Source: Escherichia phage vB_EcoM-fFiEco06. From it: a stretch of DNA of 64,000 nt. Of this stretch, positions 45,957-46,711 are shown piece after piece (positions within the stretch are counted from its first letter, which is position 1; each line of letters begins with the position of its first letter). The notes below the pieces were generated by a model. The model had not been told where the DNA came from. It saw only the letters and a program-made list of their open reading frames with translations, and searched no databases. Location: sequence record NC_054914.1; one strand, 5' to 3'. The position numbers and the translations under genes are program-made.

Positions 45957-46505
45957 ACCCAAGAAAACATCTACTGATCGTTGATACCACTGCAAATCCA
46001 AATAGCCATTACGCACATTAAACTGATAGAACATATGACAAGGCGGTAATGCCATCTGCTTGAGTTCAGCTGGATTCCATGCTGAAACAATTTGACGCCT
46101 ATCATTTGGCAATTTTTTAATACGATCAATAACTTCTATAATTTGGTCTACACCACCAAAATCACGCCACTGTTTTCCATAAATTGGACCAAGTTCACCG
46201 CTATGGTATCCTAAATCTTTTGCTTGATTTTCGTAATTTTCATCCCAAACTGTTTTGCCTTGGATTAACGAATCATGTTGAATTAATCGCAAATCATTGA
46301 CATTTGTGCTTCCCGATAAAAACCAAAGCAGCTCAGCAATGCAAGCTTTCCAGGCGAGCTTCTTAGTTGTTACTGCAGGAAAACCTTTAGTTAAATCCCA
46401 GCGTAATTTAGTACCGAACAAAGCAATTGTTCCTGTGCCTGTTCGGTCATCGGTTTCGTAGCCATTTTCCAGGATATCTTTAATTAAAAATTGGTATTGT
46501 TTCAT
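45957..46505 (-). CDS. td: thymidylate synthase exon 1 (183 codons, MKQYQ...VDVFLG)
   Basis: TS N-terminal sequence; exons 1+2 give 286 aa as in T4. Confidence 0.92.
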
Positions 46506-46711
46506 TAGTTCATCCAAGAATATGTAGAAGGATATTTGGCAAAGTTAGGCTTATATCCTAATTTAACCATTTGTTTTGCTTTGCGAGTAAATCCTAAAGA
46601 ACGCTCACCTTTAAGATATTGTTTTGGTGTCATAGGCCCTTGATGCATCTGCCGACAAATAAAAAGGGCCATAGCATTAGGAACATCCTTAACTTTTAAT
46701 TTATTGCTCAT
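46505..46711 (-). CDS. small basic protein, 68 aa, wedged between frd and td
   Basis: Start overlaps frd stop (ATGA), stop overlaps td start (TAATG). Confidence 0.45.

Follow-up and report, generated by a model that had tools for sequence, protein, structure and literature searches.

The window, a 64,000-nt stretch of the genome of Escherichia phage vB_EcoM-fFiEco06 (NC_054914.1), holds on its minus strand the dihydrofolate reductase gene frd, a 68-codon open reading frame (here called ORF68), the thymidylate synthase gene td and the ORF of the td intron alike (Table 1). An earlier note, made from the letters of the DNA, had placed ORF68 exactly between frd and td, and its coordinates bear this out. 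On the upstream side, the frd TGA overlaps the ORF68 ATG in ATGA at 46708-46711 (read-out GTATATAAATGAGCAAT; also TATAAATGAGCAAT), while on the downstream side one A is common to the ORF68 TAA and the td ATG in TAATG at 46503-46507 (read-out TGGATGAACTAATGAAACAA; also GGATGAACTAATGAAACAA). At both of its ends, ORF68 therefore has the stop/start overlap by which a translationally coupled cistron is recognised and, as the note had described it, represents a precise extra cistron which keeps frame and polarity. The direct ATGA overlap of frd and td that the note gives for T4 proved correct as well, since T4 (MT984581) has frd at 1212-1793 and td from 1790 (locus coordinates). Comparison of the two junctions showed that T4 is devoid of ORF68, which is thus not a gene carried by T4 and all of its relatives.

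Table 1. Features at and around the frd/ORF68/td junction (positions in the window).
Feature	Position	Strand	Basis and remarks
frd (dihydrofolate reductase, 193 aa)	46708-47289	-	ORF list; Pfam DHFR_1, E=3.6e-19; 97.4% nt identity to T4 frd
ORF68	46505-46711	-	68 codons + TAA; basic small protein, three predicted helices, PHROG 9550
AATGA direct repeat, left copy	46708-46712	-	holds frd stop/ORF68 start overlap; sequence read-out and simulated deletion
AATGA direct repeat, right copy	46502-46506	-	holds ORF68 stop/td start overlap; sequence read-out and simulated deletion
Tract common to Dhakavirus, minimal	46470-46713	-	ORF68 and td nt 1-36; alignments and site classification
td exon 1 (183 codons), read to in-frame stop at intron start	45954-46505	-	Thymidylat_synt profile positions 1-175
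I-TevI homing endonuclease ORF within td intron	45088-45825	-	Pfam GIY-YIG, I-TevI_ZnF, I-TevI_DNA-bd; context, outside the feature
td exon 2 region	44629-44943	-	Thymidylat_synt profile positions 176-266; context

The surroundings of the junction gave some further observations. An acidic 81-aa ORF (47289-47534, minus strand), for which Pfam gave no match, ends at the frd start. The same ORF is found in T6 (967-1212 of the T6 locus), while T4 has only a 71-nt gap between frd.1 and frd, so that the operon shows a second polymorphism of the presence/absence kind. The split of td by an intron is evident, yet at the gathering threshold neither a group I intron nor any other Rfam match was obtained in 44000-48000; the model perhaps misses an intron that carries so large an ORF. 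At the position where T4 carries I-TevI (2470-3207 of the T4 locus), the T6 record (AP018814) has a 245-codon CDS (2886-3623 of the T6 locus) which bears the name “RNA polymerase sigma factor for late transcription”, a label that, given this position, is probably an annotation problem. Further upstream, the genes of gp32 (48708-49616) and gp59 (49716-50369) lie on the minus strand only about 100 nt apart. In T4, genes 32 and 59 are separated by segG, a free-standing endonuclease gene (PMC2988022), and a gap of this size means that segG is absent from this phage.

Within ORF68, a search for promoter-like and terminator-like sites, MotA boxes and late-promoter motifs came up empty, and the RNA of the region is predicted to fold no better than shuffled sequence (z=0.47). 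Judging from the anatomy, ORF68 would be transcribed together with frd and td. Ribosomes stopping at the frd UGA could restart at the overlapping AUG of ORF68, which in T4 is td's own initiation site, and those stopping at the ORF68 UAA could restart at the td AUG (UAAUG). By such sequential restarts, td would remain coupled to frd whether the cassette is present or absent. ORF68 is hence probably translated by termination-reinitiation. As to the translational coupling on both sides which the earlier note had claimed, the overlaps themselves (ATGA and TAATG) are there to be read, and the coupling is what they suggest.

ORF68 belongs to a small but widespread family. Its product matched PHROG 9550 over the full length (E=1.3e-45, residues 1-68 on profile positions 1-68 of 68), and homologs were detected by tblastn in 236 phage records. 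Between genera, pairwise Nei-Gojobori estimates gave dN/dS values of 0.12-0.19 at dS of about 0.9-2, and an alignment of 22 sequences reaching down to 33% identity keeps K4, K6, P11, R20, K34, G40, A45 and M48 as well as the motif L51-G52-Y53-x-P55. An exhaustive HMMER profile search of 1.84 billion representative proteins returned only 11 clusters and an indexed search with a wider profile 40 proteins; the family members from both searches are 58-108 aa long, all unnamed and devoid of a Pfam domain. When the single protein was used to look for related loci, only 8 IMG/VR loci came back, most of which duplicate GenBank phages. Among all six-frame ORFs of the window, an HMM search revealed no paralog.

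More than 100 phage records list ORF68 as “hypothetical protein”, one of them with 100% identity. The 801-nt segment 46200-47000 of the window, which covers the frd 3′ end, ORF68 and the td 5′ end, is 100% identical to phage vB_EcoM-fHoEco02 (MG781191), where ORF68 is annotated. Other records treat it differently: it is unannotated in the record of JS98 (EF469154), shortened in IME339 (NC_055741) to a 42-aa fragment with Met27 as its start and labelled “flagellar biosynthesis protein” in PYPS2T (MH809535), for which Pfam gives no support. The label DUF4858 in the record of Shinka (MZ502379) is not supported either, as no Pfam family matches at E<=10.

The neighbourhood of ORF68 in other phages points to an old linkage to td within the T4-like phages. 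Dhakavirus JS98 shows the order frd, ORF68, td; Marfavirus Marfa has frd, a 117-aa ORF, ORF68 and td; Kanagawavirus CIP9 has frd, a 111-aa ORF, a 119-aa ORF, ORF68 and td; and Serratia phage 4S has frd, a 126-aa ORF, ORF68 and td. The homolog thus lies directly upstream of td, with stop/start overlap or abutment, in all four other T4-like lineages examined: TAATG joins ORF68 and td in JS98 as in the window, and the coordinates abut or overlap in Marfa, CIP9 and 4S. ORF68 likewise adjoins td in dhaeg, LH2, EPIMRB01 and MN04. At the nucleotide level, it is 73-80% identical to its counterparts in Marfa, CIP9 and 4S, which is comparable to the 70-75% of td. Given the homolog beside td in four other lineages, ORF68 appears to be an old resident of the subfamily rather than a new insertion. 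The intervening ORFs of Marfa, CIP9 and 4S belong, together with a 115-aa ORF of T6, to PHROG 1928 (the T6 protein shares 44% identity with the first of the two CIP9 copies), and genes of PHROG 1928 and PHROG 9550 stand in tandem in these three phages. On the simplest reading, the ancestral array would have been frd, PHROG 1928, PHROG 9550 and td, which was then reduced in different ways. The fullest array seen has one or two copies of PHROG 1928 in this order, and the Tequatrovirus junctions could represent reduced forms of it, with PHROG 1928 only (T6 type), ORF68 only (the type described here) or neither of them (T4 type).

The slot between frd and td is in fact polymorphic. Compared to T4, the extra DNA in the window amounts to exactly 206 nt and is bounded by the 5-nt repeat AATGA; simulated deletion of one AATGA together with the intervening DNA yields the direct frd/td overlap of the T4 and IME08 type. 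T6 carries a 416-nt segment in the same slot, whose 115-aa ORF begins 20 nt after frd and ends 44 nt before td. This segment is flanked by a 9-nt direct repeat (TAAATGAAA), and its simulated deletion gives the T4 junction base for base (the T6 allele occupies 1787-2211 of the T6 locus in AP018814; its counterpart in the window is the junction 46505-46712). Empty sites such as those of T4 and IME08 would be the expected leftover of deletions between short repeats created by the stop/start overlaps. About 568 phage records match the frd/td segment, a count which, like those of the single alleles, includes redundant records (GenBank/RefSeq duplicates and many T4 laboratory stocks). The ORF68-type junction is present in about 134 of them (ORF68 at >=90% amino acid identity in 133 records), the T6-type 115-aa ORF at >=90% identity in about 363 records (T2, RB14 and RB68 among them) and the direct T4-type junction in only 35, many of which are T4 stocks, plus RB55 and RB59. 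With only 35 records of the direct junction against about 134 and about 363, T4 represents the exception and not the reference state. The earlier note had called the insertion unusual, a description that does not hold for a slot which carries ORF68 in about 134 of the 568 records and another ORF in about 363, with 35 of the T4 type.

T4, T6 and IME08 are without ORF68, and as these phages do without it, the gene is dispensable. Its presence or absence varies within both genera, as seen for JS98, dhaeg and MN04 versus IME08 and for the phage described here versus T4. We therefore regard ORF68 as a genuine but dispensable accessory gene in a polymorphic frd/td slot of T4-like phages; taken as a whole, with the expression, import and function proposed for it here, this account appears reasonably probable to us.

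What the product might do was approached via its predicted properties. The protein of about 8 kDa is basic, as the earlier note had stated, with a pI of 10.26 and 13 K+R versus 2 D+E. Its AlphaFold2 model (pLDDT 82, pTM 0.56) was obtained with a deepened alignment, the addition of distant homologs having raised the pLDDT from the 54 reached with 13 close sequences. It features helices at residues 13-24, 29-38 and 43-50 as well as extended N-terminal (lysine-rich and conserved) and C-terminal (aromatic) segments. Searches of Pfam (E<=10) and NCBIfam and a profile search of the PDB sequences (E<=10) gave no match. Foldseek detected no structural relative, its matches in the PDB all having E>=2.4, with a few non-significant homeodomains heading the list, while BFVD returned only a family member. 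On visual inspection, a stretch at residues 36-49 has some likeness to a helix-turn-helix (L39-G40-F41-T42...A45), which is a weak lead at most, given that important positions deviate and that the fold searches lend no support. The loop formed by residues 25-29 (46624-46638, minus strand) is variable: position 26 is P, R, H or Y and position 29 P, S or Q among copies >=93% identical to the protein of the window, more distant homologs have S at position 26, and insertions of up to 8 residues occur in distant homologs. Either this loop tolerates change, or selection acts on it as a contact surface. As a tentative proposal from its size, charge and genomic setting, the product would most likely bind nucleic acid or an acidic partner protein, as a modulatory or host-takeover factor early in infection. 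It is probably neither an enzyme nor a nuclease.

The invariable position of ORF68 beside the td start in every T4-like lineage that has it could also reflect a role dedicated to thymidylate synthase or the dNTP-synthesis complex, as a partner or as a regulator, with the coupling to td setting the stoichiometry. The distribution of the family outside the T4-like phages renders this unlikely. In phAPEC8-like phages and contigs of uncultured phages, there are relatives at 33-46% identity; neither td nor frd was found within 3-4 kb of them, and eight distant homologs are surrounded by long runs of small, unannotated ORFs on the same strand. These unlinked homologs make a strict dependence on td improbable; moreover, T4, T6 and IME08 run the same pathway in the absence of ORF68. 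A bolder proposal would be that PHROG 9550 constitutes a new fold family of small basic effectors, hard-wired in T4-like phages to thymidylate synthase expression, which either modulate Td or the enzymes of dNTP synthesis, or else oppose a host factor or a defence that responds to the takeover of the nucleotide pool. We consider this speculative and give it little credence; if true, the near-identity across genera would speak for positive selection for acquisition rather than for neutral mosaicism.

Coming back to the accessory gene, the copy in the window probably goes back to a recent import, by recombination, from a Dhakavirus-like phage. ORF68 is 98.6% identical to JS98 at the nucleotide level (204/207), while frd reaches 78.8% and td exon 1 78.1%. 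In the alignment, the tract common with Dhakavirus begins at the frd stop and runs into td, where the 5′ end reads CAATTTTTAATTAAAGATATCCTGG in the window and in Dhakavirus versus CAAGATTTAATTAAAGACATTTTTG in T4 and T6. Six Dhakavirus-diagnostic bases, i.e., sites separating T4/T6 from the Dhakavirus sequences, lie at td nt 16-36 of the window. All five ORF68-bearing Tequatroviruses examined (the window, LH2, KNP1, EPIMRB01 and sb4) are of the Dhakavirus type at td nt 16-36 and of the Tequatrovirus type from td nt 72 onward; on the left side, they are of the Tequatrovirus type until 7 nt before the frd end (14 nt in EPIMRB01). The crossovers can thereby be confined to intervals between 46434 and 46470 on the right and between 46708 and 46714 on the left. 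IME08, a Dhakavirus with the direct frd/td overlap and without ORF68, has the same td 5′ sequence, and the patch in td is hence native to Dhakavirus.

These data suggest a history in which ORF68 and about 40-70 nt of td would have passed in a single import from a Dhakavirus-like donor to a Tequatrovirus, by recombination during a mixed infection with crossovers roughly 7-14 nt from the frd stop and 36-72 nt inside td; the cassette may later have spread among the Tequatroviruses. A transfer from Dhakavirus to Tequatrovirus is the most parsimonious direction in view of the six diagnostic td sites. Other histories may apply, such as a third-party donor or a transfer from Tequatrovirus to Dhakavirus followed by precise deletion in IME08. 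The deep synteny described above, with a homolog directly upstream of td in four other lineages and a divergence like that of td, would by itself also be compatible with vertical descent from a T4-like common ancestor, with loss of ORF68 in T4 and T6 and no recent import. Vertical descent would, however, predict about 78% nucleotide identity to the Dhakavirus copy, as for frd and td, instead of the observed 98.6%, and the first 36 nt of td are of the Dhakavirus type in the ORF68-bearing Tequatroviruses but not in T4 and T6. On these sequence comparisons, it is disfavoured and appears improbable as an account of this copy.

Further blocks of Dhakavirus-type sites were observed in the 3′-terminal 300 nt of frd in EPIMRB01 and sb4 and at td nt 143-165 in sb4 and another Tequatrovirus. 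Intergeneric mosaicism consequently reaches beyond the ORF68 cassette, and the patches which EPIMRB01 and sb4 carry in frd make clear that exchange of this kind is common here.

Could the cassette be actively mobile instead, driven in a homing-type process by a nuclease that cuts site-specifically close to where frd and td meet? Such a nuclease might be the ORF68 product itself, I-TevI of the neighbouring intron or another phage nuclease, and the 5′ tract of td would then represent a co-conversion tract. The sharp boundaries of the cassette, its near-identity between genera that show about 21% difference in the flanks and the short flanking td tract that moved with it would all fit, and free-standing homing endonuclease genes of T4 are indeed known to occupy intergenic slots and to cause co-conversion (PMC2988022). 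Against this stands that the 68-aa protein has no GIY-YIG, HNH or other nuclease motif and no resemblance to I-TevI, that the converted tract, at the beginning of td, is some 0.5 kb away from where the intron is inserted, and that Dhakavirus-type patches scattered in frd of some phages fit general homologous recombination and not a single break site. As a homing endonuclease, ORF68 was rejected: Pfam (E<=10) and NCBIfam gave no match, and the hhalign probability versus the I-TevI of the window was 0.2%. The earlier note had pointed to the intron with its homing endonuclease next to the insertion. Since JS98 and EPIMRB01 pair ORF68 with an intronless td, and nuclease or I-TevI-like features are lacking, the intron and I-TevI are irrelevant to ORF68. 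The sharp boundaries would have a simpler explanation in the conserved coding flanks, as only in-frame, function-preserving recombinants would survive. We thus consider a homing-type mobility very unlikely. Finally, the idea that ORF68 is only spacer sequence with a non-coding or chance reading frame, as its shortness, the lack of a known domain and the missing annotation in the JS98 record might suggest, is effectively refuted by a substitution pattern with dN/dS of 0.12-0.19 where dS is at least 0.9, and is further at odds with the length and motifs kept across genera and in unrelated phage types and with the confident AlphaFold2 model obtained once the alignment was deepened.

ORF68 itself is an already known, annotated small phage gene, and its presence here is a matter of routine recombination among T4-like phages. 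A literature search found no paper on ORF68 or on polymorphism of the frd-td junction, with most subscription journals lying outside its coverage. The locus nevertheless corrects a T4-centred view, as the textbook ATGA overlap of frd and td turns out to be the least frequent of the three alleles and has the appearance of having arisen by deletion. It also offers a clean, small case of cassette exchange between phage genera with crossovers located to a precision of a few tens of bases, in which the stop/start overlaps create microhomologies that would allow exact gain and loss of a cistron while leaving the operon undisturbed. PHROG 9550 represents a conserved family without a detectable relative of known structure or function, which opens no major question; a test of ORF68 would be cheap, as T4 provides a natural knock-out background.

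Among known systems, the closest match is PHROG 9550 itself, with identical or near-identical entries in vB_EcoM-fHoEco02 (MG781191), ACG-C40, Sf21, pSs-1 and fPS-90, from which the gene in the window shows no difference. The T4 junction, whose direct ATGA overlap was reportedly described by Purohit and Mathews in 1984, shares the frd 3′ end and the translation initiation context, the ORF68 AUG standing at the position of the T4 td AUG; it differs by the lack of the 206-nt cistron, and the T4 form can be derived by deletion between the short repeats. The insert of the T6/T2/RB14 type (115-aa ORF, PHROG 1928; RB32ORF229c) occupies the same slot and is likewise a precise indel relative to T4. 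However, its 115-aa protein is unrelated to the ORF68 product and not translationally coupled, given the distances of 20 nt to frd and 44 nt to td, and its spacer contains promoter-like (TATAAT) and SD-like sequences. A wider parallel is found in the seg and mob genes, the free-standing homing endonuclease genes of T-even phages, which lie between conserved genes, are patchily distributed among relatives and move together with their flanks (PMC2988022). ORF68 resembles them in its place between conserved genes, its patchy distribution and the flanking sequence that travels along, but differs in having no nuclease domain, only one third to one quarter of their size and no sign of a cleavage site, and ordinary recombination suffices for its spread.
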